Positions 628 to 58,850 of a DNA stretch of 64,000 nt are shown here, piece by piece. Numbering within the stretch: the first letter of the stretch is position 1; each line of letters starts with the position of its first letter. A program made the position numbers and the translations under genes. The DNA is from an uncultured Nitrososphaeraceae archaeon (lineage in GTDB: Archaea > Thermoproteota > Nitrososphaeria > Nitrososphaerales > Nitrososphaeraceae): contig CAVXZB010000048.1 in assembly GCA_963765895.1 (NCBI GenBank), positions 32,001-96,000 on the forward strand. Direction: 5' to 3'. Under the pieces are notes generated by a model. That model saw only the letters and a list, made by a program, of their open reading frames with translations. It made no database searches and was not told the DNA's origin.

Positions 628-1803
628 ATTTGGTATTCTTTTTCATCAATGCTTCCGGCTTAACTCTTGCTAATTTTGGGTTATGTTGTATCATTGTTAA
701 AATCTGACTCATTTGATCGCGCATAGCCTGGATCTCCTCATTATGTTTGCTTTCCATAATTTCAATTTCATTCTTCTTTTTGGTTAGCTCATCAACTTTC
801 TTATGCAAGCGGCACTCTTCATTTATAGTTAGATCGTTAATTGCAGCGACATAGCCCTGTGTTTTATCATTACCCTCAAGCAATTCCATATCTGTAAGTT
901 TGAAGTATGATTTGGTTAGGCCGCTTCTATGTCCCATTAGGTATTCGCTGTACAGTGGATTCATGCCGCTGTTGATACAGGTTGTTTTGAAGAATTTTCG
1001 TAGGCCATGAGTCTGCATTAGTTCGGTACGTTGTGTGTGGTTATTTGGTTGTAATCTTATTCCAGTCTTATATAGCAGTTTATGAACCACGAAAGCTACA
1101 ACATGAGTACTGACGGCTTTCGGTCTGTTGTATTCCGTTGCAGTATCAAATTCTATTCTGAATAGTGGGGAGTTAGGTTTTAGCTGCTCTCCTATCCTTT
1201 TACGCCAGTCTAGGTATTGGTCTATGTGTTTGGCGCACTCTGGAGGTACAGAACGTTGTATAGCTTTCCTGTTCTTTTTTGTATACGTTGATTTTATACA
1301 GGTTGTATTTGTCAATCTTTTGCAAGTCTCTTGTTCGTAGGTATGATAGAGCTCCACGACGTAGACCAGCACTAGACATTAACAGTATCATACACTTGTC
1401 TCTGAGTGGAGGCAGCGTCTACCAGTATCTTTATTTGGTCACGTGTATAGGGTTTATCCTCTACAACACTGTAATGCTTTGCTTTGAATTTCTTTAGTCG
1501 TTTCCAGTGTAGTGTGAAGCCGTTCATTTCGTAGAAGTGAGCGATAGGAGTTATGTAACTGGATACAGTTGTTGGAGCTAATCTTTTATCATGTCTTAGG
1601 TAAATAATGTAATCGCGTATTCTGCTTTCAAGGTCGCTTTCAGAAATTAGCACCATATCCTGATGGTTAGCTAAATTACAAAATTGTATGAAGTAATTAA
1701 ACTTTAGATTGTATTCCTTTTTTGTAAACTTGCTATTTATTGAATTGATAAAGTTGCTGTATGTTTCTGCTTCTGTTTGTTGTTGCTTCTGGTTTGGTAT
1801 CAT
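626..1803 (-). CDS. Tyrosine recombinase/integrase (~391 aa after removing two +1 frameshifts)
   Basis: Three overlapping ORFs supply the N-terminal domain, SAGLRRGAL (catalytic Arg), HGLRKFF (HxxR), LMGH and SYF (Tyr). Frameshifts lie near 1410 and 1243; 1178 nt minus 2 gives 392 codons. Confidence 0.9.
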
Positions 1804-6574: not shown

Positions 6575-6667
6575 ATTCTGAACCTACATTGCGATCATGT
6601 AAATGGCGCCACTTGTTTGGGCTATCAGTTTGCCTTGTTCCTCACAGTTAACGGGTTGTCTAGACAT
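6575..6667 (-). pseudogene. 5' remnant of a SWIM zinc-finger gene (paralogue of 26876..27124)
   Basis: MSRQPVNCEEQGKLIAQTSGAI versus MPRRLVNREEQGRLIAQTSGAI; shared DNA GCGCCACTTGTTTGGGCTATCA. Confidence 0.85.
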
Positions 6668-6680
6668 CTATGTATTCAGC

Positions 6681-6830
6681 TGCGCGCCTCATGATTGACA
6701 TGCATCTAATTTTTATGAACATACCAAGTCTGTACATTTGATCTCTCAATTCAGAAAACCTCTTTAATGTGATATATTTCATAACGTAAATTAGACGACA
6801 TTGTTTCCGACATTATTGATAGCACCAGTT
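6681..6830 (+). repeat. Dispersed modular element (A+B+C variant)
   Basis: GCGCGCCTCATGATTGACATGCA...TACATTTGATCTCTCAATTCAGAAAA...TTTCATAACGTAAAT; close match to 26660-26800. Confidence 0.85.
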
Positions 6831-6831
6831 A

Positions 6832-7595: not shown

Positions 7596-7687
7596 GCCAT
7601 GTTTGTCATTCGCATAGATCAACACCGGCGGTAAGTTGGACAAACCTAATGTTCTAAACAGATACTGTCCTTAACATATTGAATGAG

Positions 7688-7945
7688 GGTGCCTCATGAT
7701 AGATATGCACCTAATTTTTGTCATCACAACAAGGCGTCAGTCTATGCATTTTATGTCTCGATTCAGAAAAGGTTTATAATCTGGCGCGCCGCACATCTGT
7801 AATAGAAGACGCTATTTTCGAGATAAATAAATTAGATCTGCTGCAAAATCTGAAATACTCAGACGTATTAAAATTACTGGACATTAACATAATTAATTAG
7901 TCAGTTTACATGGATTAATTGTTACTACTATCTATAGATATCAGA
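7688..7945 (+). repeat. Most complete copy of the dispersed modular element (A-B-C-D-E)
   Basis: In order: GTGCCTCATGATAGATATGCAC; GTCAGTCTATGCATTT..ATTCAGAAAA; TTTATAATCTGGCGCGCCGCACATCTGTAATAGAAGACGCTATTTT; TACTATCTATAGATATC. Confidence 0.9.
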
Positions 7946-8250
7946 TTCTCGCAAATCAGAGCTAAAATTTAACTGGTCAGTCGGCTCTTAGGTTCTATTG
8001 TAGAGGGGCAAAGCCATTAGCAGGTTGGTTAGTATCATGGGGGATCTGGTACCAGGTGCAGTTTCTGGGGCTGATATGTAACCCAGGCGCTATAGTTTTG
8101 GCACAGCTGTCACTATTACATCCACAATTTTATCATTTCGAAGATACAGCGCAAGCGCAAGACAAGATCAATATTAAGAAGCTTGTTGTAATAATAGTGG
8201 TGATCATAATAATGAGCGAATTTGCATTCTTCCGATTTAGAAGTCATAAT

Positions 8251-9816: not shown

Positions 9817-9960
9817 AGGTCTATACAGAGAACGGCTTATCTTAGATAATGCTTATAATCTCGTATGCTGCAATCTGTATTAGAAGACACTTTTCCGATA
9901 TAATTATGCAGGATCTGATATGTTATCCGATTTAGTCTGATTCGGATTACTAATATGAGA
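9817..9960 (+). repeat. Dispersed modular element (B partial + C + D)
   Basis: GTCTATACA...TTATAATCTCGTATGCTGCAATCTGTATTAGAAGACACTTTTCCGATATAATTAT; abuts the stop codon of the PriX-like remnant. Confidence 0.85.
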
Positions 9961-9973
9961 GTCGGTTATCTAC

Positions 9974-10200
9974 CTACGGTTTAGCCAACACATTGTACAA
10001 ATATCTATTTTCTATCTTTAATTTCCCAAACCTTATAGGTAGATAACCATTCATCTTTGCTGTACTAACATTATATTTGATCATATAATTGGGATTAAAG
10101 TCTAGTCTCATCAGAGAACTACATCTGTCAAGCCAATTCGGTATTGCACCAAAAGCCTCATCAGGAAAAGATTTTCTAATATTAATATGATATGAAACGA
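9974..10200 (-). pseudogene. PriX-like primase-domain protein, C-terminal remnant
   Basis: HINIRKSFPDEAFGAIPNWLDRCSSLMRLDFNPNYMIKYN...GYLPI resembles the PriX helical domain. Confidence 0.7.
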
Positions 10201-10581
10201 AAATATGCACATTGCAAATTTTTCCCATGATTCCAATATGGTGTTGCACGTACACCATTAACATCGAGCGATGTATCTGGAAATGCACCTGCCGTTTAGT
10301 CTAGACTATGTCCGGCTTATTCTCGGACGAATTCAATAAGGTAATCTAGGGAAGATGCATTCTGAGTATATCTTACGTACGCACGCATGTGCATTGCAGC
10401 ATACTGAATTTTTATAAAACGCAATAAATACAGTCAGAAGTACCAAGTAACTGATAAGCTAGAATGATTATTTTATTTATTAATACAAAATAAACAGTGA
10501 ATATGATTAGAACACATTATAAAATTGTGTGCATTCACTATAGCTAGGAATCCCCAGCGATTTCTCTTCGGTATTGACATT

Positions 10582-20594: not shown

Positions 20595-20773
20595 CTAGCC
20601 TGAGCCTTGTTATACAATAACTGTTTTCTGTCTTTAATTTTCCCCAGACTTATCAGTAAATAACCATCCTTTTTGCAGAATTAATATTATATTTGATCAT
20701 ATAATTGGGATTAAAGTCTAATCTCCTTAAGGAATCACATCTGTCAAGCCAATTCTTTATTATATTAAAAGCC
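20595..20773 (-). pseudogene. PriX-like C-terminal remnant
   Basis: AFNIIKNWLDRCDSLRRLDFNPNYMIKYNINSAK; a 35-nt stretch is identical to the ~10070-10104 copy. Confidence 0.8.
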
Positions 20774-20943
20774 TAATACTAGTCTTTAGTGATAGTATAA
20801 GTTCAATAAGAAATTTCTGAATGCAATTCATAGAGAAGTAATGCAGAAAATCTCTCAAATTAAGCACGAATATTAGGTTACATAAGGTAGCAAATTACCA
20901 TCTGGTGACTAGCACCCGTGATCCTCTGCTTTTTATATGAAAT

Positions 20944-26875: not shown

Positions 26876-27124
26876 TCAATGATTAAATGTCGTGCTTTGA
26901 CGATGATAAAATTCAACTGCATATACATGCTTGCATTTGGTATTGTGACGAGCGTAATCTGGACATGAACAAACCCATCCAGATTCAGTTGCAATGACAG
27001 TATAAGTGTTATAGCCGGATTTTGATCTTACCCTATAACTTGATTCATTGATCATCGAAATAGCGCCACTTGTTTGGGCTATCAATCTGCCTTGCTCTTC
27101 ACGGTTGACGAGTCGTCTAGGCAT
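26876..27124 (-). CDS. Stand-alone SWIM zinc-finger protein
   Basis: WVCSCPD...KCKHVYAV (CxC...CxH). Confidence 0.85.
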   Translation of the reverse strand: MPRRLVNREEQGRLIAQTSGAISMINESSYRVRSKSGYNTYTVIATESGWVCSCPDYARHNTKCKHVYAVEFYHRQSTTFNH

Positions 27125-28300: not shown

Positions 28301-28410
28301 ATATTTATAATCTGGCGCGCCGCACATCTGTATTATAAGACAGTGTTTCCGATATAATTACACGGGACATGTCAAAATCCGATACTGTCCGATGTGTTAA
28401 GACTTGGCTA
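28301..28410 (+). repeat. Dispersed element (modules C+D)
   Basis: TTTATAATCTGGCGCGCCGCACATCTGTA is identical to 7773-7801, followed by TTTCCGATATAATTA and ATCCGATACTGTCCGATGTGTT. Confidence 0.9.
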
Positions 28411-30100: not shown

Positions 30101-30248
30101 ATAGTGCAAGAATAAGTTATGAGTGCCTAAAATTACCTTTACATTCTATAATGATAATTAATCGCCCGTGCAACAAGGGCTTATTTTTTAATAATATCAG
30201 AGAAAATATGTTTAATTATTTTTATATTTGATCGTCCAATCAATAATT

Positions 30249-30602
30249 ATGGATTACCGTAAGTTATGTGAAGACATTCTTAACTTGGATCCAAGGGTGC
30301 GTTTTGCGGGGGTCTGTGATGATACTGGCGAAATAAAATATGGTGGACAACGCGAAGGTGTTAAGAACTTGCTTATGCCAGAAGAAACAAAAAAATCAAA
30401 CATTCAAGCAATAGCTATGTGGGGATTGCGTAAATCTCTTGCGTCACGAGTTGGAAAAGGTCTATACGCTATGGCTGAATATGAGAAAATAAAGCTTATA
30501 ACGTTTCCACTAGAAAACGATCATTTCCTTCCTGTCACAACAGAGGTAGAGTCAGATCATAACAATATCATAAGCAATGTTCTCAAATTACTGAAAAGCT
30601 GA
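30249..30602 (+). CDS. DUF6659/roadblock-like protein
   Basis: LCEDILNLDPRVRFAGV, GGQREGV, YAMAEYEKIKLITFPL. Confidence 0.8.
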   Translation: MDYRKLCEDILNLDPRVRFAGVCDDTGEIKYGGQREGVKNLLMPEETKKSNIQAIAMWGLRKSLASRVGKGLYAMAEYEKIKLITFPLENDHFLPVTTEVESDHNNIISNVLKLLKS

Positions 30603-30699
30603 ATCCAAGTATTGAGAATTTCAAAATTCATTCTGACCTTTTATTAGTAACGATTCATTTAAATGTCTTTTTCTAAAGGACCAACTTATGCCATTGCTA

Positions 30700-31015
30700 C
30701 AAGTGACAATGCACCACACAACAAATTTCCTATAATCAACCAATGGAGTTTGCAACAGTTTTTCTATCCACCCAGATTTTAGTTGAATTTGTGGTCTGGG
30801 CGCGCTCTCTATTAGTATACCTAGATTGTACGAGTTTTGCATCTATGAGCCATCTTTTAAAATAGCGCAGTAGATAGTTTATCGCAGGCCTTTGACCATC
30901 CCACCTTTGCATGATTGTGACTACCTGCCCGCATTTTGAATTTATCATTCCAGGAATGCTACGATAAGAGGTTTTAATCTTGCTGAAGGAGTATTTGAAG
31001 TATCTATTGCACGCT
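30700..31015 (-). pseudogene. PriX-like protein, central remnant
   Basis: SIPGMINSKCGQ...QRWDGQRPAINYLLRYFKRWLID...TTNSTKI / WIEKLLQTPLVDYRKFVVWCI. Confidence 0.75.
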
Positions 31016-31035
31016 GAGTACGATATTTTATGGAA

Positions 31036-31977
31036 TCATACTTTTTTAGCCTTCAATAATATATAGTCGATAAGTCCCTGACTAGAATCAACCTTCATTT
31101 CTAAAAGTGATTTGTAAAGAATAGCTTCAAGAAATATTGGGTATTCTCTAACTATCATACTCTTTAATTTATCTCTGTTCTGAATATAATAGTTCGCTAA
31201 TGGCCCATATACATTTTGGCCTATATACTGGATATCTTTGATTTCGAAACCATGTGTTTTAACTATCGATTTGACGTATTCTAACTTGTAATGTTCTGAG
31301 ACCCAGGTTACAGATAGTATTCCAAGTTTTATAAAAAGTGGTAATGATAACAGATTAGAGGCATTTGCTATAACTGGCATTGCCAATACCATAAGTCCGG
31401 AGGGTTCTAAGACCCTATTTGATTCTTGTATAAATTGTATCAATGGTTTAAAATGCTGCGCAGATTCTAAAGCAATTACTCTATCTACAGAAGTATTTCT
31501 AATTGGTAACATTGTGGAGGTCGCATTTATATGAAATATATTATTATTTCTTAAACTCTTTAGTGGGACTAACCCCACGCCATAATCTATTGTTTGACTA
31601 TTTGACTTGAAAGCGACAGCAATCTTTAATTGTTCTAAATTTATATTTATACATAGGATTTTCAGGAAACTATATTGTGATTTCCATTGAAGTGCAGGAG
31701 CAGAATATCCGCTCCCAACATCTACTAATCTTGTTGCTGTCTGCAAGGAAGCAAATTCTCCAATCATTTTAGAAAGTCTATATTGTGCCTGCAAAGGATA
31801 TTGAGTCTTGTCATCCCAATATCCAAAATTGAGCATATTTCCTCCAGTTGTAATTTGCATTAAGCCTGAAAGGGAATTGTAAAGATTGATAACATCATGT
31901 TCATTGCGTCTAAGAGTAGATAGAAATAGTTTAAGTAGATTAGTCAAAGGCAATATCAAAGCGATAGACAATTTCAC
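31036..31977 (-). CDS. Class I SAM-dependent methyltransferase
   Basis: MLNFGYW, LVDVGSGYSAPA, DRVIALESAQHF. Confidence 0.88.
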   Translation of the reverse strand: MKLSIALILPLTNLLKLFLSTLRRNEHDVINLYNSLSGLMQITTGGNMLNFGYWDDKTQYPLQAQYRLSKMIGEFASLQTATRLVDVGSGYSAPALQWKSQYSFLKILCININLEQLKIAVAFKSNSQTIDYGVGLVPLKSLRNNNIFHINATSTMLPIRNTSVDRVIALESAQHFKPLIQFIQESNRVLEPSGLMVLAMPVIANASNLLSLPLFIKLGILSVTWVSEHYKLEYVKSIVKTHGFEIKDIQYIGQNVYGPLANYYIQNRDKLKSMIVREYPIFLEAILYKSLLEMKVDSSQGLIDYILLKAKKV

Positions 31978-32161
31978 CTATTTAATTGAAATAGATGAAA
32001 GATTATGATCTTGACTTTATTATCTCGATGGTGGGAAGGGATAGATAACAATAATAACACTGGTATCTACATGAGTGAGAAGATCTACAATGTCGCTTTA
32101 TAGTTTCGTTTGGAAAATGAAAGCCCAAGATGATCATCGTCAACAAGTGAGCTAATTCAAT

Positions 32162-33328
32162 TTAATTATGTTCGAATATTCTGCAAGAATATTCAGACAA
32201 TTTTTTTAGAGCCTGAATTCTCTCATGTCTTTCTATTTCTGCACCTTCAATCGCAGACGCTAAATAGCTAATCGATCTATCGTAAGTCTTTCGCGCTATA
32301 GGATATGGCACTCCATCCTTGCCGCCATGAGCAAAGTTAAATTTTACAGGATCTTGCCATGATGCTTTAGTTCCGTAAATTAATTCTCCAATTAATGACA
32401 GAGATCTTACTGTAGCAGGACCAACTCCATGAATAGAAAGCAATTCTTCGTAATTTTGTGGGTGGATATCATAAATTCGTCTGAATAGATTCCAGTCCAA
32501 CTTACGAGGCATCTTATAATGCTCAATTAAATTATTATTATCAATCTGTTGACTATTCAAAACTAACATTTCTGGAATTAGCCAAGTATCTAATGTATTT
32601 CTTGTATCCGAAGTAAGTATGCTTGTTACTTTATGAACTGATGACCTTAGATTATCAATATTATCTGTTACCAAATCGACACAGATTCTTTGGTTCTCTT
32701 TTGAATTAATTGATGTCATATTGAGAACATTAGAACTTTTATATTTACTTATGATTGCAGAATGTGGTTCTAAAATGAAACTCTTGATCTTATCGGAAAT
32801 CCAGTGATACCTTCTTGCCATTCTATTAACTTGGTTCATACCTTGTTGAATGATTGCCCAATTCCCATTTTTGTCAAAAAAGATCACATGATGATATAAG
32901 GAGTAACCATCTTGTACTGCTGCGTTGTCAATTTTTGCTGCCATTCTACTTGCATATAACAAATCATTAATCTTTACAGAAGATAGATTGTAGTGCTTTT
33001 CGGCAAGCTTTGGAATATCATTTTTGGTTGTTGTAGATTTCTTTCCTTTTCCTCCAGCAATAGAAATTCCATGTACATCTTCTTTCAATGCCTGATTTAG
33101 AACGCCTGTTACCACAGTTGTAACTCCAGACGAATGCCAATCAAACCCCAGTACACAACCAAAAGCCTGAAACCAAAGAGGATCAGATAACCTTCTCAAA
33201 AATTCCTGTTGTCCATATTCATCAATCATTACTTTTGCTATGGAATAAGAAAGCTTAATCATTCGTCTAATTAAGTACTGCGGAGCATGTCCTCCATGCA
33301 GGGGCAGATTAATAATGGAAGTTTTCAA
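32162..33328 (-). CDS. DUF763 family protein
   Basis: LPLHGGHAP, SDPLWFQAFGCVLGFDWHSSGVTT, HhH motif GVGPATVR, FAHGGKDGVP. Confidence 0.92.
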   Translation of the reverse strand: MKTSIINLPLHGGHAPQYLIRRMIKLSYSIAKVMIDEYGQQEFLRRLSDPLWFQAFGCVLGFDWHSSGVTTVVTGVLNQALKEDVHGISIAGGKGKKSTTTKNDIPKLAEKHYNLSSVKINDLLYASRMAAKIDNAAVQDGYSLYHHVIFFDKNGNWAIIQQGMNQVNRMARRYHWISDKIKSFILEPHSAIISKYKSSNVLNMTSINSKENQRICVDLVTDNIDNLRSSVHKVTSILTSDTRNTLDTWLIPEMLVLNSQQIDNNNLIEHYKMPRKLDWNLFRRIYDIHPQNYEELLSIHGVGPATVRSLSLIGELIYGTKASWQDPVKFNFAHGGKDGVPYPIARKTYDRSISYLASAIEGAEIERHERIQALKKLSEYSCRIFEHN

Positions 33329-33595
33329 TGGTCATTTTATATAATGACATAATCTATATAATTATAGTTCCAGCTTCTAATCTGTCAGTATAAATTTTCT
33401 GAATTCGTCAATTGAGCGCGGATATAAAAGGATTGAAGGGGCTAATGCTTACAGTTTTTAGTCATAGAATATACTACTGAGGAGTTCAGTTAAGTCCGCT
33501 AATTGGGTAAATCGAGATCCAAGCAGTCTTTCCACATTACTCTTTGGGCTGAACTGTACTTATCTTGTCCTACTTTGCCCTATTCATTATGTCAA

Positions 33596-34193
33596 TTAAG
33601 CAGCTGGAATTGATGGTGGCCGCATAATTGATAATGATGAATTATCTGACGGTCGATGATTTGGTATAGTTGTACTACCAACTATCTCGAACTGCTGAGA
33701 TCCTTTAGGAAAACTGAAGATTATTGTTCTATCTAGCGTAGTTGAAGTCTCGTCAAGTGATTCTATGAGATTTCCATCTATTAGTACCTTAAAGTTGTTA
33801 TTAAATCCTATTAAAGATGTATTTGAATCCTATTAAAGATGTATTTGAATCCTCAGTATCGATTAAACCTCTAGGCAATTCCAAGGTAAATTTCCCTGGT
33901 GATGGTGAAGTAATATTTATAATGACTATTGAATTGTTTGCTAGTATCTCATTTAGTTTGTTACCAAAGCCAGTAATTTCATATTTCATAACATCGCCGG
34001 GCCTATTGGTTAGCACCCCTCCCTTCATCTGCTCCAGTTGATTTAAGGGCATAGGCGTAATTTGGTGTAGTGAAGAGTTTTGTAGGCCTAGTAGTAGGCG
34101 TAGACGTTGTAGGGAGGAGACAGCTCGATTAACAAATTGTGGTGGTGGTTTTTGCGGTATCGGTGTACTTGGATTATGCTGCAAGATCTGCAA
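33596..34193 (-). pseudogene. Surface-protein domain frameshifted by a 22-bp tandem duplication
   Basis: KYEITG...PGKFTLELPRGLID, then FKVLIDG...RTIIFSFPKGSQQFEIVGS in another frame. Paralogous to 47305..47817. Confidence 0.7.
33804..33852. repeat. 22-bp tandem duplication
   Basis: AATCCTATTAAAGATGTATTTG x2 plus AATCC. Confidence 0.95.
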
Positions 34194-34219
34194 AGAGTCA
34201 GATCGAGCCGCGCGTGGTT

Positions 34220-34317
34220 AAATAGTCAAATGTTGTCCGATGTGTTGAACTAATTACATATTAACAGACTTAGTATAGTGATTCGCATAGACTAGCTGAT
34301 ACTATCTATAGATATCG
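34220..34317 (+). repeat. Dispersed element (modules D+E)
   Basis: TGTCCGATGTGTT...TACTATCTATAGATATC at 34300-34316. Confidence 0.75.
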
Positions 34318-34883
34318 TCAAGGAGTTGACAGATCTAAGGTTCATTACCCGTCATAATGGTTTTACCTATCAATAGAATCAGCTGGTCCTGAGTCAGTTT
34401 GGATTTTTAATAACTCTTTATTCGCAGTCGGATCGTTGTACATGATATTATGCTCTATTGGATCCGGATAAGTTCATTAATTTAGATATAATTTGCAACG
34501 TAAGTCTCCTGCTTTGTAGCAATTATTGGATAGTGTGGCACGAACATATGCCCTTACATTTTCCGGCCAAGCGTACATCATTATTGTAGTGATTTGGTGT
34601 GTATTGAAAGATTATGTTATACAATCGAATAGAATTCATGAACTCCGGGGTATCCCGGGCTATCTTCTATCCTAATGAAGAATATAGGTGTATGATAGTA
34701 TCGTAACACAATAGATAATGCAGTAGTTGTATTAGAATTCAATAATATCCCGGTTATTCTAGATTCGCGATCTTATGTCAAGAGGAAAGAGGGTTCATAT
34801 GGCAGTATAAAAACTCCCGTAGTTTCTTTAACTCCACTTATTAGTCTGGTTAAACTCATTTCATTGGTAAGATAGACTAAGGC

Positions 34884-35210
34884 TTGGTGCTAGAAGACAA
34901 AGATATACTACAAGTTGATGCCACAATAATTACAGGTATACTAATTATGCTTAGCATTACAGGCTTTATTGGATCTGGCGTTGGCAAGACCAGTTTTACA
35001 GGTCTGGCGAGCCTAGTCTCCATTATATTAATTCCGTTTAGTGTATCTGCAGTTTTGGTAGTTCAGTTAGAACGCATGAAGCCGTCTTATGTGCGCCGCG
35101 TCAAATCGATAAGTTTGACTCTTATGGAATTCGGGTTTGTTGCTCTTATTTTTCTATTTATATTATACTTCTTGTTCCCTCAAATCCAATTAGAGCTTCA
35201 TTTAAGATAA
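34884..35210 (+). CDS. Small three-TM membrane protein
   Basis: DILQVDATIITGILIML followed by two further hydrophobic helices. Confidence 0.65.
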   Translation: MVLEDKDILQVDATIITGILIMLSITGFIGSGVGKTSFTGLASLVSIILIPFSVSAVLVVQLERMKPSYVRRVKSISLTLMEFGFVALIFLFILYFLFPQIQLELHLR

Positions 35211-35477
35211 ATATGAGGCTAAGTTTCGTCCCTTAATTTGAAGGGATTAAACCGGTTGATGGGTTAGGAAAGGCCCAACCAATAACCTATAGGAGATACA
35301 TGTGACCTAACCTGAATTGGTTCTATATCATCGGCAACCTCGATTTCATGACTTATGGTCTATGCATAATGACCAGAATAATATACCTGACGGGGTTATA
35401 GACCGTATATTATTAGGAATTTGGCACTCCTAATGATTGACATAGATAATGACTGGATTTATCCCAAGCTCAATTAA

Positions 35478-35882
35478 CTAATAGATCCATTCCCAATTTC
35501 TGGCAGAAGTATTGCCAATTCCATTTACTTCATATTCAAAGACTGCCACAATATTGTTAATAAAAGCAAGGCTTCCGCTTGAATCAGTATGATATATTAC
35601 TGAGCCACGAAATCTTATTACATGTGGAGTGGTAAAGCGTCCAAGGCCTTGCGCAATCCATGTTGCAATTTGACCATCTATAGTTGTTAAAACACCTTGT
35701 CCTTGTCCATACAAAGCTCCATCCGGCCTTGGAATACTCAAATAAGTTCCCAAGTCTGTAACTGCTATAGTTCGGAATGTTCCCTCAGCGGAGAAAGTGC
35801 TTTCTATTTTAGGTCCTTCAGCATCAACTATCCGCTGACCGATAATACGGCCAACCTCTTGTCCTAATTCTGCGCCTAGCAT
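35478..35882 (-). CDS. Conserved hypothetical beta-rich protein
   Basis: MLGAELGQEVGRIIGQR...RPDGALYGQGQG...FEYEV...WEW. Confidence 0.75.
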   Translation of the reverse strand: MLGAELGQEVGRIIGQRIVDAEGPKIESTFSAEGTFRTIAVTDLGTYLSIPRPDGALYGQGQGVLTTIDGQIATWIAQGLGRFTTPHVIRFRGSVIYHTDSSGSLAFINNIVAVFEYEVNGIGNTSARNWEWIY

Positions 35883-36306
35883 ACTATAATTATCATGAGT
35901 TTTGACTATTAAGATATTGTAAGCTATTCTAGGAATTTCTGATCTGTAATTATAATAAATTAGCATCCTTGCTACTACTGTTATTCTTAGCATTGTACAT
36001 AAGCTACTAGTGTAAACCAAAAAGTAGCAATTAAGGGAGTAAATTTCTTTCATCTATGGTTTCTCAAGTATCATAAATATCAATTACCTATAGTTTGCTA
36101 CAGATTGGCATGTCCTACACATTACTGTTCCTATTACACTATTGAAATTCAAAATTGAAAGTGTCTGGACTGGCGCATTGACTAATTGTCTGGAAATACA
36201 ATCAACGATTACGATAGTAATAAAATATCTCGCTAAATCCTTTACTAATACCCTCACGACCATTTCTTAGGACAACTCTGCATAGTATAGATACTTAGCA
36301 TCATGA

Positions 36307-36600
36307 TCACAAATTCCTAAGTATCGTGGCAGTTTGCTCAGCTGTAAATGCCTTGAGAGTCATAGTCGTAGAACTGCCCTGTTGGCTTTCATATGATAAT
36401 AGACTTGACATAATTGTTGCATCATCAGGAGCCTCTACAATGGATACACCATCATATTGTCCCAATGTATAGTATGTGCTAACCAACTTCCCTCCTGCTT
36501 TCTCTATACTGTTTTTAAAAGTTTCAGAACGTTTTGCAGAATCCTTCACAGTCCTTATTCCTTGTTCTGTGAACTTCCATAGAATAATGAAGTGAGCCAT
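36307..36600 (-). CDS. GYD domain protein
   Basis: FTEQGIRTVKD, YYTLGQYD, EAPDD, TLKAF. Confidence 0.9.
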   Translation of the reverse strand: MAHFIILWKFTEQGIRTVKDSAKRSETFKNSIEKAGGKLVSTYYTLGQYDGVSIVEAPDDATIMSSLLSYESQQGSSTTMTLKAFTAEQTATILRNL

Positions 36601-36855
36601 CTTTCTTTTTGGAAATCATTGTCAATTTGATATATATACCTATCTTGGTACTGTATTCAATGATGGTATAGTGTTTGTCTGATGCAACAGGTCTAGAGTG
36701 AAGATAGAGCGCAAGCAGCACCATCACCATATATGCGCTAAAAGAAGTATTTGCTATTTCTAATCCGGATTCATAGTCACTAAACTATGAATAGAGTCTA
36801 GCTGCAAATCCAATCCACTTCAGACGAAGATTTCAACCTAATTACATACGTGATT

Positions 36856-37732
36856 TCAGTATGCCAAAGATGGAAGAAAAGGCAGTCGTGGTTCTTGGTA
36901 AGGACCAATCGTCATGAGATTTGCAGGCCAACCTATTTGGAAGCGATTTTCAAGTAGCCAGTTAATTATCTCATGATTCCGGCCAGGTACTAAGAAGCCA
37001 GGACCAAGAATTGTAGAAGCATTAGCAATCAATGTCTTTAGATCATCATTTGATTTAGCAACCGCATGACATAGTATTCCTATACCTGCTGCGTAGCCAG
37101 TGACAGCACCATCTTGTTCTATCATAAATGCTACTCCTTGGTCTATTGCCTGGCGTAATTCCATTTCCCGTGAAAATCCATATGCTGAATTACAAAGCTC
37201 GTTGCACAAGGAAATATCATTATCATCTAGAACTAGGCGCGCGTTGCGATTGCTTGCATGATTGATTTCGCTTTTTAGTGGTTGCCCTTGCATCAAAAAT
37301 AAAGGTTCACGTAGAATGAATCCGCACTTTGTATACAATACGAAGGAACGAATATGACTCGGCGATTGTACTAACATAATCTGGTTATGGTTATGTCTAT
37401 GAGCTTGAATAAGTGGCAGCATCCATCAATTTTCTACCTATACCGCCACCCTCAGCAGTAGGATGGACTGTAAGCGGGCCTATGACAGCCACAGGCGAAG
37501 GCGGAAATTCATGGAGGAATACGCTTCCTAATATCTTGCCTTGACGCTCTGCTAAAACTCCCCATGAATTCGGATTACCAAGAAGCATTCTGATAAGCTC
37601 TATACCAAACTCCTCAGAAGGCTGCTCTGAGGGATAACCATGGGCTGAAGAAATGGTCTTGTGCGCTTCGTACCCGATCATGCCGCAGGATTCTACATCA
37701 TTCTGTTCAATGGGCCGTATAGTTAAACTCAA
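36856..37732 (-). CDS. GNAT acetyltransferase (one +1 frameshift near 37415)
   Basis: IGPLTVHPTAEGGGIGRKLM, then LYTKCGF in the second ORF. Confidence 0.85.
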
Positions 37733-37867
37733 TTACAAATTACTAGCAATTGATCTCTAATATTAAAAGTAAATTTGGTACGAAGACAAACTTTCATTAA
37801 CCTTATCTTGGATCGATAGAATGTCAAATATGTTCTGAGACCCTCATCGTCAAAAACATTTTCTAAT

Positions 37868-37983
37868 ATTATAAGGTATTGTGCTAGGATATGCCGTATA
37901 ACGTATTTTCTGTACTCATCTATCGGAGTTTTCACTAGTTTTTCTGTCCATCCAAATCTTAGAAGTTGTAGTCAGGGGCGCGC
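37868..37983 (-). pseudogene. PriX-like remnant
   Basis: WTEKLVKTPIDEYRKYVIRHILAQYLI; the right boundary is GGCGCGC, fused to repeat module A. Confidence 0.75.
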
Positions 37984-38005
37984 ACCTCATGGTAGACATC
38001 TACAA
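37977..38005 (+). repeat. Dispersed element module A (other short copies at 14338, 19456, 39170)
   Basis: GGCGCGCACCTCATGGTAGACAT; GGCGTGCCTCATGATAGA (19456); GGCGCGCCTTATGATAGATTTGCAC (39170); GGCGCGCGCCTAATCATGGACATGCA (14338). Confidence 0.75.
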
Positions 38006-38147
38006 AAATTTTACCATCATACACAGGCGTGTCACTATAGGAGTGGAACAAACCAATTAACAAGTTTTTAGATAGATATTATCAGATTAATAGCATTACA
38101 AATTCTCATCTAGCGGTGATAAAGTAACAAGCTCATTTTTTAAAATT

Positions 38148-38513
38148 ATGGACAACAAAAATCTTACAATCGTTGCTATTTCAATATTAGCATCATTGTT
38201 AGCAGGTTGTGTGTTTATGTCTTCAGAGATCGCATTTGCATGTGGACATCACCATTCTGAATCCATTCGGCAAACAGCTACACAGACTAATGCTTGTGGA
38301 AACGGAATCATGTCGTTAGACATTAATTGTCAAAATATAGGCCACCAGATTAACGGAGATCATAATGCAGACAATATGACAGGCATTCGGCCAAGTAGTA
38401 TCTTCGGTGGGTTTGATCATGGTAATGACGGCCATAATGGTCATAATGATCAGGGTAGCAGCCCAAGTGATTATATCCCCGTTGGTAATCCAATCACAGG
38501 TGCTGATCCCTAA
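38148..38513 (+). CDS. Small secreted protein
   Basis: Signal-like N-terminus, QTNACGNG..INCQN, and a His/Gly/Asn-rich tail. Confidence 0.7.
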   Translation: MDNKNLTIVAISILASLLAGCVFMSSEIAFACGHHHSESIRQTATQTNACGNGIMSLDINCQNIGHQINGDHNADNMTGIRPSSIFGGFDHGNDGHNGHNDQGSSPSDYIPVGNPITGADP

Positions 38514-38849
38514 GAATTCTTATAAAGAAGGTGCAGAAAATATAATTTTAGCGGATTCAAGATTTAATCCTGCAAGAACGAATGAACATATCAACAATCA
38601 ACAAGTTTGAATCGCATGATATGTAACTTTAATAAATATGACATAGGATAGACGGCTAAGTCGCCGAGAAGCGAGCGCGCGCCTACCTGTACAAGGGATC
38701 AAGCAGGTCTCTCTTAGGACAGATAAGTGCTAGCCATAAACAAATAGCGAACACTTTCACGAAGCAACATCTAGTACATTCCAGTGAATATACAATCCCC
38801 TCCGCCTCTCCCTTTGTGACAGTGTTGTTAAAAAGAAAGCAGACTTAAG

Positions 38850-39140
38850 ATGTTACTCGAAGTGTCCCAAAATGAACAAAATGAAAATGGCAACGACGAT
38901 ATCTTAGCTAAAGAGATCGAATCATGGAAAGACTTTAGGTATGCTCTAAGGGAAGAAAATGCAGTTCTATTTAATAAGATGCTTTCTGAGAGTGTGCACA
39001 ATAGAGGCTACGTCAAAGCTGCTATCTCCAAATGCGAAAACTATTCGGCTGAATCATTATTTATGCTCTTAATATTGCAGCAGCAAAAGATGATAAATGA
39101 ATTGATAGCCAAAGTATCCAAATTTAGTTACCCCTTATAA
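38850..39140 (+). CDS. Conserved hypothetical protein
   Basis: KEIESWKDFRYALREEN...AESLFMLLILQQQKMINEL. Confidence 0.7.
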   Translation: MLLEVSQNEQNENGNDDILAKEIESWKDFRYALREENAVLFNKMLSESVHNRGYVKAAISKCENYSAESLFMLLILQQQKMINELIAKVSKFSYPL

Positions 39141-39194
39141 TGCAATTTAGACTAGATGTATAAGAAACTGGCGCGCCTTATGATAGATTTGCAC

Positions 39195-39345
39195 ATAACT
39201 TACGCCATACTTCAAATTTTCTATAGTCATCTAACGGTGTTTACAATAACTTCTCAATCCACTAGATTTTAGTAGAATTCGTGGTCCAGGCGCGCGATTT
39301 ATTGAATTGTTCAAGTTATTCATCTATGAGCCATCTTCCAAATTG
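39195..39345 (-). pseudogene. PriX-like remnant
   Basis: RWLIDE*LEQFNKSRAWTTNSTKI*WIEKLL*TPLDDYRKFEVWR; DNA homologous to 30720-30857. Confidence 0.8.
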
Positions 39346-39761
39346 GTTTACTAGCTACAAGAAGATAATGAAATGAAGACATGAAACTAGTTTAGACTGC
39401 TTAGAGCCAAATGCCGGCAAAGCAAAGTATAATCATACACAATCATATCAAACTGAACCCCATTTACTACTTGAAGATATCTACGTCAAACATGATATAA
39501 GATGAGAGACACGTACACAGATATTCACTGTGTCGCATTGCTCGCATATTGTACAAGACGCTGAAGATCGGGGGAGTTCTGAGCAGTGTTTAAATCAACT
39601 ATTCCATCACATCCGATGGAAGGACCAAGAGAAAAGTTTTGTTCACTTGCGACTGCTTAAGTATAAAACGTCATGGTTTAGCTGCGATAAATAATCTATT
39701 TCATAGCTATGTGAGATCGATATGATGTGGAATCGAAGTTTGCGATATGGAGATCAAATAT

Positions 39762-39944: not shown

Positions 39945-41250
39945 CTTAGCCAGAGGATATACAACATTTTGGGCAAGTTATCAGGATTATACAGCGATGG
40001 GAAGGTCAAAGACCTGCAATAAATTATCTATTGCGCGATTTCAGAAGGTGGCTCATTAATGAAAAGATGAAGCAGAGGTTAACAGATAATAGGAAGGTGC
40101 GCGGTCAGATCATTTCCTTTATGTATATATTGGTATTTTTTATAAAATTTGTCTACATATAGGCTTTGAATTCTTGCAACTTCATCAATTTCTCCTCTAT
40201 CCAACCAGACACCTTTACATGTTGGATAAAGATCAACTTCTACACTTATCTATGTATTAATTGCATTTGATTTAGGCAATTTGGACATTGCGATTCTTAA
40301 TAACCGATATCAAATACTTTTGAATATCATTTAATTATAACGTTTACTTTGTAATACAGAGTCGTGCATTCAACAGACATTATTCAATATAAATGATATT
40401 TTATTACTATGTAATTTGATAGGTACTGCTCATAGATATAAGGTTTAGGTTTTATCAATTTGCTAACTGTTGTACGTCTAGTCATAGGGGGCATGATAGA
40501 TATATACATGCACACTTCTGCTATTAGGAATTGCATTTCTGGATGAATCCTTAATCTTTAACGCTAACAGGCAATCTGTTAGTTGAAAGTGACCTATCAG
40601 CGATTGGCGTTTTGTTTAACTTTAACGTAGTTACCTATTATTCTAACCTTAGCATATAGCGGGAAGATAAGGGAAAATGTCTAGCCATTCTTCAAAATCT
40701 CCATATCAACCAGGATAGTTTTTCTTCATAGTTTCTTTTATTATAGGGGGAATATAATTTTGAGTTGATCTCTTAATCGTCAATTCTATTCTGTAATCAA
40801 TAAAATCATTTACATAAGGATTAGTTTCCTGAGGGTATATTATCATTATTATCAAAGTTACTTGTTTCCCTATTTATCATAACATTTTAGTATGACCTTA
40901 AATAAGGGTGATTCACAAAATCTATTAGGTTATTCAAGAATTCAAGAAATATTTTTCTGATTGCATTGTAATTTGCGATATCCGACGCTAATTCTATGTG
41001 ATACGAAAATTCAGATTGAATATTCTATTTATAGCATGGGAGATAACTGGGATTACCAACACCTGTACTTAACCTTAATATAGTTCACAAATTAAAAATT
41101 TGCTGCTATTATTACTAGATTAGTTTTCCTGTGCTCTTCTCTAGCTCTTCAGAAATCTAGCAATATATTTAATTGGATCAAGATAACAACAAATTAAGCA
41201 GTTAACTAACACGTCTACAATGCAACACACTGAAAACATGTTTGTAAAAT

Positions 41251-43556: not shown

Positions 43557-44513
43557 GGCCATGTAGAAATCATCACAAAAATGACAATATTCGTTAGCCT
43601 GTGCATGTTATAGGCTATGCATCTGAATGATAGTTCCCTGTTCTGTGTTTTTACTAGCCTTGAAGAAATATATTCTCCAAATAGTCGTTTTATGACAGAC
43701 ATTATGGTCTCATCCTTGTTTCGTTGATTGTACAATAGTTCGTTATATCCACGTTTCATCTGCTTTCTATATCTGCCATGTGTTCTCCATATCGGTACAT
43801 GTTCATATCGAGCTGGAATAACACTGAATGCATGCAAGGTTTCTCTTACCAACTGATGATTATCTTCATTATCATATCCCTTATCAGCTGTAACTACGGA
43901 TAGTGGTAGAATTTCAGCTATTCTTGTAATGATTGGCTTGAAATCTACATTATCATGTCTTGTAGGAGCTCGTCTTATCCTTATGTTGCAGATAATCTGT
44001 TGTAATACATCAGCTCCAATAGATAATTTCGCATATTTTCTTCTTGCTTCTATTCGTTCATCATAATACTGTGAAGCATGAGTTATTTTAAATCCTGTTG
44101 AATCTATTCCTACAAAGATATGCTTCGTACAGCTAATTACAATGAATGACGAAATTATCTTCTCAAGCAGTGAATTGCTAATTCTGTCTGTCTGTAAACT
44201 TTTGCAATGTTGTAAAATGAGGAATACGTGACAATCGTAGGTACGATCTAAGGTAATGTGCCTCGACTAACCACTCGACAAACATCCTATAACTCTTACC
44301 TTCGGTACTGTCTTATTGTAAGTAATACTAAATGCTGCCATATCATAAATACATGATTGCTCTTTCTGTGAAGAAACAATGGTATCCTTGAATTTCTCAA
44401 GACACGGTACATAGTATTAGCCAGCCTAACATATCTTGATTCTTTCAACATCCATATTGGATCATACGTCTAGAAAGCTCTAACGGTATTCAGAACATGG
44501 TTTCTACAGAGCC
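43557..44513 (-). mobile_element. IS5-family insertion sequence (957 bp) with degenerate transposase
   Basis: Imperfect 18-bp IRs GGCCATGTAGAAATCATC / GGCTCTGTAGAAACCATG, 9-bp target duplication ATATACCTC on both sides, and DDE motifs GIDSTGF, ADKGYD, YNQRNKDET. Confidence 0.93.
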
Positions 44514-46342
44514 ATATACCTCAAATTCTTATTATATTAAATTTGTTATCAAATTTTATTATTATTGAGCTTTAATTTCCTCGATTCTTTGTATTTTAGC
44601 GTCATATCAATAAGATGATCGTTTTTCATTTGTAATCTCATAAATCCTGTTAAATCCAAACGCATAAGTCAGATTTTTTTTGCTAGTACATTAATGCTAG
44701 GTTGAAGTTAATTGAATAGGTTCTTTTTTGTTGTTATTGTTTCTCCTCCTTTGTCTGCTTCGTAGCAATTTCCTTATTTCTATTATAACACGAAAAACTC
44801 TTTTAATATTAGATTATATATTGTTTCATCTTATTAGATTTGGGATTAATAAGTTTACAAAAAATAGATCAAAGATGAGATAATATATAGTGATAGGATA
44901 AATAAGGTATTGTAGGCGCCAGTCCTAAATATTGCCTGCCGCATCTTTCAAACGGCTATTTGCCCACCTTGGATCTTCTAGTCCTGTTTATATGTACTTT
45001 AGTCGGCTCTCTTTATCATAAATATCATTAGTTGATAATTCTAATACACTCTCCCCAATTTACTTGTCTGACACTATTCCAATAGAATTCCCTCCTACAG
45101 AAGTAATTTCGCTGCTGCCATTGACTTCAAAACTTGGAGGATGCGACGAGGCGATCAATACAGATCTCTTATCAGTGACCAACTCAAAAACTTGGGTAGA
45201 ATATTTAGATAAGAGTTATGTCATCTCAAGTCTCATCTATTTAAGGTATGATATATCTCTTAATCTCATGTGTAGTTCACAGACGCCATCGAATATTCTC
45301 TCAACAACATCTGTTTATACATTATCTGTGGACCCATCCTCTAAGTTAGAGAATTCTTTAACCTTTCCAGCCAGATCAGATGGATCAATAACGAATGGTA
45401 CTATTTTTGTATATACTGCGGTACATAATCCCAAAGCTCCATCAGCCTATTACTCAGCTATCCAGATTTAGATAAATACATTAGGGGACCATTCAATCCA
45501 CATGGCTAACTGCCAGGTGCACTAGCAGATCGGCAGTGACGTCTGGTCTACTCCTTTCTTTCTTATTTTTGGTATCAAGATGGTTGAGTAGAAACCTATG
45601 CATTTAAGAACCCATCAAAAAATAGATAGATAGACATGTAGCTTGATTTTCGTTTAAGTGTGGCTTACAGTAGGATCAAATGGCTTCCAACAGTAAAAGG
45701 AATCCCTTATGAACTGTGGGATGAAACAAAGATGAAACCATTGTCTCGGTCATAAAATGACTGTTTGTAGAGTATCTTATGTCTAGATTGACTAGAACAC
45801 AGAACAGGGAATTAACATTCTGATGCATGACGTACAATATATACAGATATACATAGACTGACTAATCTGATAATATTGATGATGTTTTCTACGTAGCCGG
45901 TCCATAGGCGTTCTCAAATATACTATAATCAGTATTTGACTGGATTCTGTGCTTAGACGCTCTTCTGCCTGTTATCAAGAAGATACAGCCAAGACTGGCG
46001 GTACATTTATCAGTTTAATCTAATTAGGAGTAAATCATTATATGCAATCACAAGGTCCAAGCTCAGACGATAATATAGATCAGGCTAAAGGAATGTATCT
46101 TCATAATCAATAGCCAATCTCTTTGACTCCATTGGCGGCAAATTGATCAAATTTGAATAATCTTTTCAATTGTTTTATCTACTCTTATTATATAGAATGT
46201 TTTCATAAACAAAACATGCGAATGCAAATTTCTACCATCGTTGGAGCATTATCTATCTCCAAACCAATGGCTCACATTTGAGGTTCCATCTAAGATACTC
46301 CATGATTATCCACAAAAAATGATGACTAGATCTCTGGCCTTT

Positions 46343-47919: not shown

Positions 47920-48030
47920 AATAACTGATGGTTGGTGCCTTCTCTATATCTCCTGTAACCTATCTGATAGACACAAGTTGATCTGATAGTTGCGCTATAG
48001 CATCATCTTTTACTCTGTCACGCTGTCTTG
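47920..48030 (-). pseudogene. Integrase C-terminal tail remnant
   Basis: RQRDRVKDDAIAQLSDQLV matches 2460-2520 (RQREKVKDDAIVQLSDQLV). Confidence 0.7.
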
Positions 48031-48668
48031 GCGAATTTTCTTACATTTTCCTACATTAGAAGGAAAGAGAATATAGTAACAAGAAATGTTTTGAATGCAA
48101 GGGTAGTACAGAAGTTGATAGACTGTTAAAAGAACCTATAGATATTTTTGGAGATACTGAGACGTCGAATTGTAAAAACTGTAAAGAAATTTTGCATAAA
48201 CGTGTTAGATGTAATAAAATGACTAAAAGGTCGATGTGGGTATATAACAGTGAAGTACCAGACGAATTCTATGCTGACGCTGCACAAAATGCACTAAATC
48301 TTTTTCAAGCGGTTCTTTCCAGCATAAAAATTAGTCAAGCAATAGCGCATAACGAAGATAAAAGTCAGACTATTAACAGGCATATAACCACTGTCACAGC
48401 AACAATCAAAGTACTAATCGCTTTATAGTTGCATCAAATATGAGATTTCTATATAAAGTCTGTCAATGCTCTAGCCCTCGATTTGAGACTTCGTTATTCT
48501 ATACATGTTAACATGATAAACCCATTCAAATAATAAATAATAGAATAAAAAGCCATTTATTAAATGAAATGATAAACCTAAGTAAAAGTACTATATCACT
48601 GATATTGCTATTGTATTCGTAAGATAGATTAGTATAGTAATCTAACTTGTATCTATCTATCTATCTAC

Positions 48669-57971: not shown

Positions 57972-58850
57972 GAACCTATCCGAAAACTCCTCCTCTTCTG
58001 TAAGTGATCCAAGCACAAGCAAAATGTAACATTGCAATATGATTCTCCACCTTTTTCTCCCATCTAATTAACAACCGTCTAAACCTGTTCATCCAAGAAT
58101 GGGTTCTTTCAACAACCCAATGTCTAGCTTTGTATCCAGGTATAACAATTCGTATACTTCCGGAAAGTCGTAACCCTTGTCAAGACACATGTACTGCTTA
58201 AATCTGATTGTTGGCTCAGGTCTATAGATTACTATGCTCTGAAGTGTTGCTTTACTCATTTTCATGTCATGTCTATTAGCACCATCTATAGATACGCCAA
58301 TAGGAACTCCTTTACCATCTACCAATACACTACGCTTAGTACCCTATTTACTTCTGTCTGTGGGATTTGGTCGTGTGCTTTTTTCCCCCAAGAGGTGCTT
58401 TTGTAATAACACCATCCATAGCCTGCCATTTCCAGTCTATTCTATTAGTATTATCATACATACACTGACAATCCATCGATCCACATACGTTTGAATACAC
58501 CTGCTTTCCTCCACTCCTGGAATCTATCATGTACTGGTACCTTGAAGCACCAAGACTTCTTGGTAGAGCATTCCACTGACAGCCTGTACGTAGGATGTAG
58601 AAAATAGCACCCATAGCCTTTCTGTCATCCATTCTTGGACGACCAGTCTTTTTCTTCCTAGGTATTGATGGTGACCGTAGCAATGCAATGATCCTATCCC
58701 ATATAACGTCAGGTAGGGAGTACCAGAAATCAACTCCTGTGTCCTCTGATATCAATACATCTCAAAGGAAATGCAGTACAGCTTAGCTTTATCGATTAAA
58801 GGCAGTTTGCATATAACTCAATTAAAATCAACTACTTTTCTGATAGGTTC
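57972..58850 (-). mobile_element. IS5-family insertion sequence (879 bp) with degenerate transposase
   Basis: 15-bp IRs GAACCTATC(C/A)GAAAA, TAA on both flanks, and motifs GRPRMDDR, LRTGCQW, AMDG, DKGYD, VVERTHSW. Confidence 0.92.

Follow-up and report, generated by a model that had tools for sequence, protein, structure and literature searches.

A primase-polymerase fragment joined to a promoter-like module at a GC palindrome among decayed mobile elements of a Nitrososphaeraceae archaeon

The genomes of soil ammonia-oxidising archaea are large and sparsely coding, and little is known of the mobile elements in them. In an uncultured Nitrososphaeraceae archaeon (assembly GCA_963765895.1), the 64,000-nucleotide stretch analysed here (contig CAVXZB010000048.1, positions 32,001 to 96,000 of the forward strand; hereafter the window) contains a place where PriX-like sequence gives way to a repeat, module A, at a GC palindrome. 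The original prediction read this switch as the footprint of a crossover at the palindrome, one of three GGCGCGC copies on the plus strand (30799, 37977 and 39289), all of which were confirmed by motif search. Is the switch real, what are the two sequences that meet there, and what kind of process would join them at so short a motif?

The PriX-like pieces of the window represent the beginning of a PriX domain that forms the C-terminal part of a primase-polymerase carried by mobile elements. Against the Pfam PriX family (PF18689), a 78-aa frame at 37729-37965 (minus strand) scores 19.2 bits (E 0.0015), below the cut-off of 25, and 30621-30842 (minus strand) has no match; the predicted PriX homology holds, but what had been called a PriX-like gene is a remnant of a longer gene for a primase-polymerase. 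A word-indexed protein search returned no longer relatives of the 78-aa fragment, and an exhaustive search of 1.84 billion representatives returned only four matches, all short. The alignment of these four proteins retrieved 55 loci from genome collections, mostly metagenome-assembled genomes of Nitrososphaeraceae and Nitrosocosmicus with several copies per genome, a set biased to copies that keep the PriX motif.

Intact relatives among these loci encode about 350 aa, comprising an AEP domain and a PriX domain, and it is their C-terminal 100 aa that pass the PriX thresholds: the intact relative at locus L002 reaches 44.8 bits in Pfam and 69.7 bits with NCBIfam primase_PriX (NF033412; cut-off 50), and phmmer matches an intact relative to PDB entry 4wyh (E 5e-9). 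The AEP part has no match in Pfam, PHROG or NCBIfam. Residues D94, D96 and H136, which we take to be the named AEP motif residues, are invariant in 14 sequences. In the AlphaFold (AF2) model of L002 (pLDDT 84.9), the AEP domain and a PriX-like helical bundle are connected by a flexible, disordered linker (residues 244-252). Foldseek superposes the C-terminal part on PriX 4wyh (TM 0.84, rmsd 1.7 over 96 columns) and matches the N-terminal part to RepB' 3h20 (E 3e-6), CAPP Prim-Pol 7nqd (E 2e-4) and S-2L PrimPol 6zp9. L002 is a member of the AEP superfamily with a PriX/PriCT-type accessory domain, like the AEP primases with a helical accessory domain represented by Sulfolobus solfataricus PriX (4wyh), RSF1010 RepB' (3h20) and the PriCT-bearing primases of mobile elements (Kazlauskas et al. 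2018, PMC5862659).

The window holds only fragments of such genes. A search with nhmmer and the intact-gene profile detected six of them and no intact copy, and in none is the AEP domain whole:

9979-10221, minus strand: primase fragment (nhmmer).
20606-20774, minus strand: primase fragment (nhmmer).
30705..30994, minus strand: primase fragment, native through the palindrome at 30800-30805, frameshifted (nhmmer model 515-801, E 1.7e-63).
37837..37977, minus strand: 3' primase-polymerase fragment with the start of the PriX domain, truncated at both ends (nhmmer, tblastn).
39193..39354, minus strand: primase fragment, native through the palindrome at 39290-39295 (nhmmer model 631-804, E 1.8e-25).
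39970..40112, plus strand: primase fragment whose 3' side is lost about 8 nt past a degenerate core, GTGCGCGG (nhmmer model 573-715).

The copies at 30799 and 39289 are PriX-like on both sides of the motif, as predicted, and in self-comparison 30714-30856 and 39205-39337 are homologous across it (74% over 143 nt, E 6e-16). The fragment at 39193..39354 carries TAG and TAA in frame and reads as a pseudogene.

The palindrome is a native part of the primase gene. It lies at about positions 702-707 of the primase profile, between the two domains, and is an exact GCGCGC in 5 of 11 intact genes and a GC-rich near variant in the other 6. Some copies read it as Met-Ala-Arg (MAR) and others as Glu-Arg-Ala (ERA); thus, it is the DNA word that is kept in the linker, and not the peptide. 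Conservation along the gene is lowest in the linker upstream of the core. Nine native sites with the order linker, core, PriX were recognised by eye, eight of which are also labelled by a regular-expression classification that misses L003.

The primase belongs to integrative elements with the order tyrosine integrase, 101-aa ORF, 851-aa protein, primase, modules B and A and, often, a SWIM zinc-finger gene. The L002 integrase (3975-5153) matches Pfam Phage_integrase (E 2e-10), and its relatives occur in eight further loci (L008, L011, L013, L014, L015, L023 and L039 among them) and, as a pseudogene, in the window:

632..1770, minus strand: remains of a tyrosine integrase from this element family, a pseudogene spread over three frames (three tblastn segments with the L002 integrase as query, E 4e-129).

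The 851-aa protein has no family in Pfam, NCBIfam or PHROGs, and PHROGs holds nothing for the primase, the SWIM protein or two further ORFs described below (ORF96 and ORF121). In this soil ammonia-oxidising archaeon, the window region is a graveyard of degraded integrative elements, and its analysis brings out a widespread family of elements, present in multiple copies, whose primase is an AEP-PriX fusion. The replication proteins described in the available text on thaumarchaeal integrated elements (PMC6563490) include no primase-polymerase with a fused PriX domain.

The second partner, module A, is a promoter-like spacer between the primase and the SWIM gene in the same integrase-bearing elements. 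It lies 130-230 nt past the primase stop, on the opposite strand and with its tip distal (L004, L005, L009, L039 and L008), and this far tip, at which the module starts, is normally GGCGCGCC. Among 15 module A matches that reach the model start in the related loci, 7 have an exact GCGCGCC, 6 have it with one mismatch and 2 have neither. Module A is a diverged family: the exact 16-mer by which it had been identified, ACCTCATGGTAGACAT, has no second occurrence in the window even when two mismatches are allowed. No Rfam family reaches its gathering score anywhere in the window, and none matches with E <=1 in 6500-8000 or 37700-39500, so module A is not a known RNA. The copies of modules A and B that bear on the junction are the following:

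6593..6763: native-type arrangement of SWIM, palindrome and module A (SWIM start 6593-6667 on the minus strand, palindrome 6682-6687, module A 6683-6763).
7688..7829, plus strand: module A whose start lacks an intact palindrome, then module B (nhmmer, site table).
28304..28360, plus strand: second module B copy, with GGCGCGCC at 28314-28321 (self-BLAST, site table).
37984..38040, plus strand: module A copy, its first about 57 nt (nhmmer, alignment).
39170..39177: GGCGCGCC core with the ORF96 module on one side and a short module A on the other (motif search).
39172..39203, plus strand: short module A copy, about 32 nt (nhmmer, E 0.012).

The original prediction had module A starting at the palindrome at 6682, 14338 and 39170, each time beside an unrelated left flank. 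This is correct for the start at 6682 and, with a short match, at 39170; at 14338 the match (at 14342) is not significant (E 1.2). The left flank at 6682 is not foreign, being the start of a SWIM gene, the usual neighbour of module A, and that at 39170 is the ORF96 module. The strong copies at 7688, 11254 and 26661 start without an intact palindrome, which was lost or never there. Beyond the tip of A-bearing cores, the SWIM gene start is found in 4 of 18 cases, at a distance of 10-25 nt from module A, and another partner in 14 of 18. These non-SWIM partners are of 13 kinds, namely PriX, the end of ORF96 and 11 that belong to no recognised class; the latter are mostly unrelated, with two homologous to each other.

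In module B, as seen in 7688..7829, GGCGCGCC (there at 7783-7790) lies between a TATA-like box and a right arm that is conserved. Module B sites retain both arms in all five copies and are never mosaic. The core-bearing ends of the A-B unit at 7688-7790 match at 17 of 21 positions in inverted orientation, and the unit was considered as a miniature transposon; this was rejected, because module B keeps its outer arm in 5/5 copies, so that end of the unit is not a terminus. No target duplication was seen.

At the junction itself, the core GCGCGC occupies 37978..37983 (GGCGCGC from 37977), with the primase fragment on one side and module A on the other. The primase profile, built from 11 intact genes, matches 37987-37837 at model positions 698-849 of 1022 (nhmmer, E 4.5e-23), the fragment at 37837..37977 corresponds to residues 257-294 of the L002 primase in tblastn, and the self-BLAST match between 30725-30805 and 37905-37983 ends at the last base of the motif, 37983. 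From the other side, a module A profile built from four other window copies (6682, 7687, 11253 and 26660), with the junction copy left out, matches 37981-38039 from its model position 2 (nhmmer, E 6.7e-5). Primase homology thus ends and module A homology starts inside the same 6-bp core. The predicted switch from PriX-like sequence to module A is confirmed: it is a genuine junction, and the motif is the exact place where homology changes.

Read in the primase sense, the reverse complement of module A is followed by the core and the first codons of the PriX domain, where native genes have the linker instead. Two extra bases (AC), absent from canonical copies, lie between the core and module A. 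Both parental configurations, linker-palindrome-PriX and SWIM-palindrome-A, were found, so that, as in a microhomology join, a single core copy is shared by two parents with identifiable contexts. The distal part of the module A copy at 37984..38040 doubles as the upstream region of the next ORF. The frame that reads through the join in the window meets a stop codon directly after the palindrome, and the PriX part ends early, at model position 849 of 1022.

The same join occurs in other genomes. A syntenic contig of another assembly (L037) has the junction within 1951 nt that are 93.6% identical to the window, and a protein of 89% identity (P0001), whose cluster has five members on five metagenome contigs, reads through the join as an open frame. 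The join is older than the split from the 94%-identical relative. Across it, the frame differs among the window, L037 and P0001, with a 2-nt indel beside the core; because these three known versions differ in frame, the scar encodes nothing functional. Together with the stop codon of the window and the early end of PriX, this identifies the join as a pseudogene scar and not a new gene.

Comparison with a further locus, L009, delimits the segment that carries the scar:

37846..38797: block that L009 lacks, about 952 bp long, with the PriX fragment and its palindrome, module A, ORF121 and the palindrome at 38675 (L009 comparison).
38148..38513, plus strand: ORF121, an ORF of 121 aa, His-rich, with a hydrophobic N-terminus and no family match (ORF list, family searches).
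38675..38682: GCGCGCGC core, with both flanks lacking relatives in the data (motif search).
38724..39169, plus strand: ORF96 module, with the ORF at 38850-39140 (L009 comparison).

In L009 a GNAT upstream region directly adjoins the ORF96 module (L009 17587-17344 equals window 37600-37845, and L009 17348-16967 equals window 38798-39176), where the window holds the 952-bp block 37846-38797. CCCTC stands on both sides of this block, which is an insertion or a deletion relative to L009. The homology of the ORF96 module to L009 in turn ends at a palindrome, with different partners beyond: the window has AAGAAACTG, GCGCGC and module A, and L009 (16965) has AAGAAACTG, GCGCGC and unrelated sequence. 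Homologues of ORF121 occur in L002, L026 and L037, and L002 has 37997-38545 in common with the window at 83%, without the palindrome. A related case at a separate palindrome is L020, where the similarity between a paralogous GNAT region and the window breaks off at a GCGCGC.

The linker palindrome is a repeated break point, with at least five further independent cases at or beside it. At L007-4999 and L023-12861 the core is followed by PriX, and the upstream sequence contains no primase. At L053-417 the core is followed by the PriX start with a deletion, and the other arm is common to L002-17313. L035 has a different module A subtype, a degenerate core and then a PriX fragment, and also has a stop codon. 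L037-3614, the orthologue of the 30800 copy, has a 5.1-kb deletion relative to window 30798-35933 whose break lies 0-3 nt from the core, and the window fragment 39970-40112 (plus strand) breaks off 8 nt past its degenerate core. Of 30 fragments whose 5' start lies inside a contig, 8 start at model positions 693-718, against an expectation of about 1; L016, L023-9858 and L055, three of these eight, are ambiguous and perhaps alignment-edge effects beside the variable linker. As evidence for breakage at palindromes generally, an end-point test is weak: 22 of 311 BLAST end points lying <=60 nt from a core fall within -2..+3 of its edge, with about 15 expected, so most module boundaries in these loci are not at palindromes.

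The motif is also frequent. GCGCGC occurs 15 times in the window where about 1.4-1.57 copies are expected (0 of 100 shuffles reach 15), and GGCGCGCC 5 times where 0.02-0.05 are expected. Counts in the related loci are as follows:

Close Nitrososphaeraceae loci: GCGCGC 80, expected 10.1; GGCGCGCC 15, expected 0.36.
Distant Nitrososphaerales loci with the same primase family: GCGCGC 1, expected 2.3; GGCGCGCC 0, expected 0.07.
Micrarchaeota loci: GCGCGC 22, expected 33.9; GGCGCGCC 2, expected 1.60.

The distant Nitrososphaerales relatives thus have a single GCGCGC in 166 kb, and an enrichment of about 8-11 times is confined to this Nitrososphaeraceae lineage.

What process left the scar? The reading we favour, to which we give about an even chance, is an old illegitimate join at a GC microhomology shared among decayed elements. 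Breaks would arise in AT-rich element DNA, where the rare, self-complementary 6-8 bp GC core would be the most stable microhomology on offer; core-bearing ends could then anneal and be joined, by microhomology-mediated joining or template switching, leaving one core, and a dedicated recombinase would not be needed. At the window junction, the palindrome of the primase linker and that of the module A tip coincide. The AC bases next to the core, the repeated CCCTC beside the 952-bp block and another join between L037 and the window at ATGATCA all speak for joining of this kind. Primase-driven microhomology end joining has been described in archaea (Xiong et al. 2025, PMC12019639); in the available text of that report, as here, one short shared copy is left and small numbers of bases are added, and the other joins in these genomes likewise lie at microhomologies of 5-7 nt. 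Short-homology end joining explains the junction at least as well as a crossover does. If no enzyme directs the process, the locus is a clean natural example of a rare GC microhomology that channels rearrangements in AT-rich archaeal DNA.

Three observations are left unexplained by plain microhomology: the conservation of the core as DNA in differing linker frames, the non-SWIM partners met by the A tip in 14 of 18 cores, and the lineage-specific enrichment. In contrast to ordinary microhomology use, the same 6-8 bp GC palindrome is here reused, conserved and enriched. Linker conservation, the variety of A partners and the enrichment together hint at a site-directed process.

Such a process could be site-specific recombination, with the GC palindrome as the crossover core of the tyrosine integrase that the elements encode in L002, its relatives and, as a pseudogene, the window. 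The primase-linker copy would then be a secondary attachment site, and the junction the scar of a nested integration or an integrase-mediated deletion. We consider this unlikely, though of appreciable probability. It would explain the conservation of the linker DNA in the varying frames of a disordered linker, the many partners of the A tip and the common orientation of the copies better than microhomology does. Module A ends exactly at the core against 13 kinds of non-SWIM partner, the core at the end of the ORF96 module leads to one partner in the window and to another in L009, and the order module A, core, PriX originated in each of two widely diverged sequence subtypes. All six significant module A copies of the window and the weak seventh are on the plus strand and five of six primase fragments on the minus strand, which fits tandem integration. 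Attachment sites of thaumarchaeal elements can be as short as 8 bp in the available text of Krupovic et al. 2019 (PMC6563490), whose integrated elements also resemble the present ones in combining an integrase with a replication module and in being piled up.

Against an integrase stand the elements themselves. L008 and L013 have intact gene sets and a single GCGCGC each, at neither end, and L002 contains no GCGCGC in the 10 kb upstream of its primase; a search for flanking direct repeats around these three intact elements gave no convincing attachment sites, a weak negative, since the element ends are undefined. In this they differ from the elements described in the available text of PMC6563490, since no intact element flanked by the palindrome was found here; GCGCGC is absent from the supplementary text files of that paper. 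The reciprocal product (linker, core, SWIM) was found in none of 33 loose linker-pattern matches, of which 25 are true primase linkers (24 native and the truncated copy at window 40046), in a data set biased against finding it. By eye, no inverted binding arms are evident around the core, although several of 25 GGCGCGCC-type sites have a GATAGA-like box 4-6 nt from it, within AT-rich flanks. The module B sites, with both arms in 5/5 copies, are never mosaic, the junction has two extra bases and a 2-nt indel, and the palindrome is missing in distant relatives of the element family. Of the predicted crossover footprint, the position at the palindrome stands, but a reciprocal or enzyme-directed exchange is the less probable reading, given the missing reciprocal product, elements that are not flanked by palindromes, the extra bases and the ordinary microhomologies at other joins.

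In its widest form, which is doubtful to the same degree, GGCGCGCC would be the crossover core by which a Nitrososphaeraceae family of integrase/primase-polymerase elements recombines site-specifically, with a second copy retained as a DNA word in the disordered linker of the elements' own primase. With core copies at the tip and in the linker, elements would integrate, excise and delete against one another at domain boundaries, shuffling promoters and gene halves and seeding the host lineage with the motif. If directed by an enzyme, this would be a very short recombination site for the exchange of such parts between elements.

Mere coincidence, by which the primase was truncated at random and its end fell on the motif by chance, or its homology simply fades in a variable linker, is improbable. 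The linker upstream of the core is indeed poorly conserved, and the general end-point test is weak. However, the sequence past the core is positively identified as module A from the first base of that module, the five or more further junctions lie at the same few bases, and diverged intact genes align through the linker (L027 28-921, L032 19-908).

Cutting by a restriction-type endonuclease specific for GCGCGC or GGCGCGCC, with religation of cohesive ends that restores the core and swaps the flanks, is about as improbable. It would account for the one intact core in every new junction, the free combination of partners and the lineage-specific behaviour of the motif, and known restriction enzymes presumably recognise both words. 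However, genomes tend to avoid restriction sites, and this motif is enriched about 8-11 times; there are also extra bases at the junction. No DNA methyltransferase or nuclease gene was found among the 49 of 62 listed ORFs (>=95 aa) of the window that were compared with Pfam. The sole methyltransferase among these is of the small-molecule type.

It is very improbable that the arrangement is native, module A being the promoter of a stand-alone PriX-domain gene, so that there would be no join at all. Module A in the same orientation does precede the SWIM start at four loci, P0001 is open across the join, and L035 provides a second case of module A, core and PriX. Yet the primase linker, and not module A, follows this position in the nine native copies. 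Also against a native gene are a PriX part that stops at model 849 of 1022, the frame differences among the window, L037 and P0001, the stop codons in the window and in L035, and the mere four matching proteins, all short, in the exhaustive search. An assembly chimera at a repeat has negligible probability: the region is rich in repeats, but the junction recurs in an independent metagenome-assembled genome (L037) with 6% divergence around it, and in the protein cluster on five further contigs.

On either the preferred microhomology reading or the integrase reading, the locus shows how mobile elements of soil archaea decay and recombine, with one 6-8 bp GC palindrome, present in a gene linker and at the tip of a promoter-like module, marking repeated break-and-join points. 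The scar is of a known sort, that of illegitimate or site-specific recombination; in the literature on the motif in archaea and on repeats and palindromes of Nitrosocosmicus, no description of this palindrome or of the element junctions was found, and both are apparently undescribed. The GC clusters of yeast mitochondrial DNA, like other short palindromic elements of AT-rich genomes, are GC-rich, lie in spacers, occasionally in genes, and are associated with rearrangement break points. Unlike these, the present core has only 6-10 bp, is tied to the modules of one element family and gives no sign of moving on its own. The window around the scar is AT-rich (35% G+C) and of low coding density; no tRNA or tmRNA was found in it, and a DNA polymerase D large subunit gene lies at 62125-63996.

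L037, a 4.2-kb contig from another genome that was retrieved as a primase/PriX relative, is a mosaic of window segments 33234-32130, 38446-35934 and 30797-30169 when compared with positions 30169-38446 of the window, with segment identities of 94-98%. One of its joins carries the microhomology ATGATCA; at the other, which adjoins a palindrome, window positions 30798-35933 are missing from L037.

The core of this palindrome, GCGCGC, recurs at 37978-37983, where it marks the junction between a PriX-like primase fragment and module A. When positions 1-40200 and 40200-64000 of the window were compared, all of its 15 sites fell before 39300, and a motif count over the whole window found none in the final 24 kb. 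The part with all of the sites is also the part with the integrase pseudogene, six primase fragments and copies of modules A and B, the promoter-like repeats that lie between the primase and the SWIM gene in this element family. The significant module A copies are listed by their starts:

6683, 7688, 11254, 26661, 37981 and 39172, module A

All six are on the plus strand, and five of the six primase fragments are on the minus strand. The element family has a single shared orientation over 40 kb of the window.

Further genes and gene fragments of the window:

36856-37732, minus strand, GNAT acetyltransferase, divided between a 188-aa and a 111-aa ORF that overlap
26876-27124, minus strand, 82-aa ORF with a SWIM zinc finger (E 8e-6 to Pfam SWIM)
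6593-6667, minus strand, 25 codons left of a second SWIM copy
9495-9699, two tandem 91-nt copies (86%) within an ORF

A GCGCGC lies at 37237 inside the split acetyltransferase, whose paralogous region in L020, another of the retrieved loci, holds one 290-aa ORF instead of the split pair. In several related elements, the primase is followed by the SWIM gene. The ORF with the tandem copies weakly matches a small-metal-binding-protein, and GGCGCGCC occurs at 9459 in its signal-peptide-like start.

Self-comparison of the window yielded a family of promoter-like modules:

4758-4791, 6048-6104, 7773-7829, 9853-9906 and 28304-28360

Their layout is TTTATAATCT followed by a GC-rich stretch of 8-10 nt and GCA(C/T)AT; only two copies contain GGCGCGCC within the GC-rich part. 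Other repeats and a transposase remnant are also present:

43599-43722 and 45723-45846, 124-nt arms of an inverted repeat, 2 kb apart and 74% complementary
2456-2521 and 47969-48034, 66-nt arms of an inverted repeat, 45 kb apart and 86-88% identical
58348-58755, minus strand, IS4/IS5-type transposase fragment (DUF4096, E 4.5e-14)

Among relatives outside the window, the Micrarchaeota loci L044-L052 and L054 encode single-copy proteins of ~310-330 aa that share a C-terminal WIEKLLQTP...PriX-like domain and have unrelated N-terminal parts; these loci show no GCGCGC enrichment. Two further relatives carry short tandem GTGTCGCA-type repeats:

L002, 8822-9066
L008, 9015-9114

In both, the repeats lie within the 3' portion of the gene for the 851-aa protein, directly upstream of the primase start.
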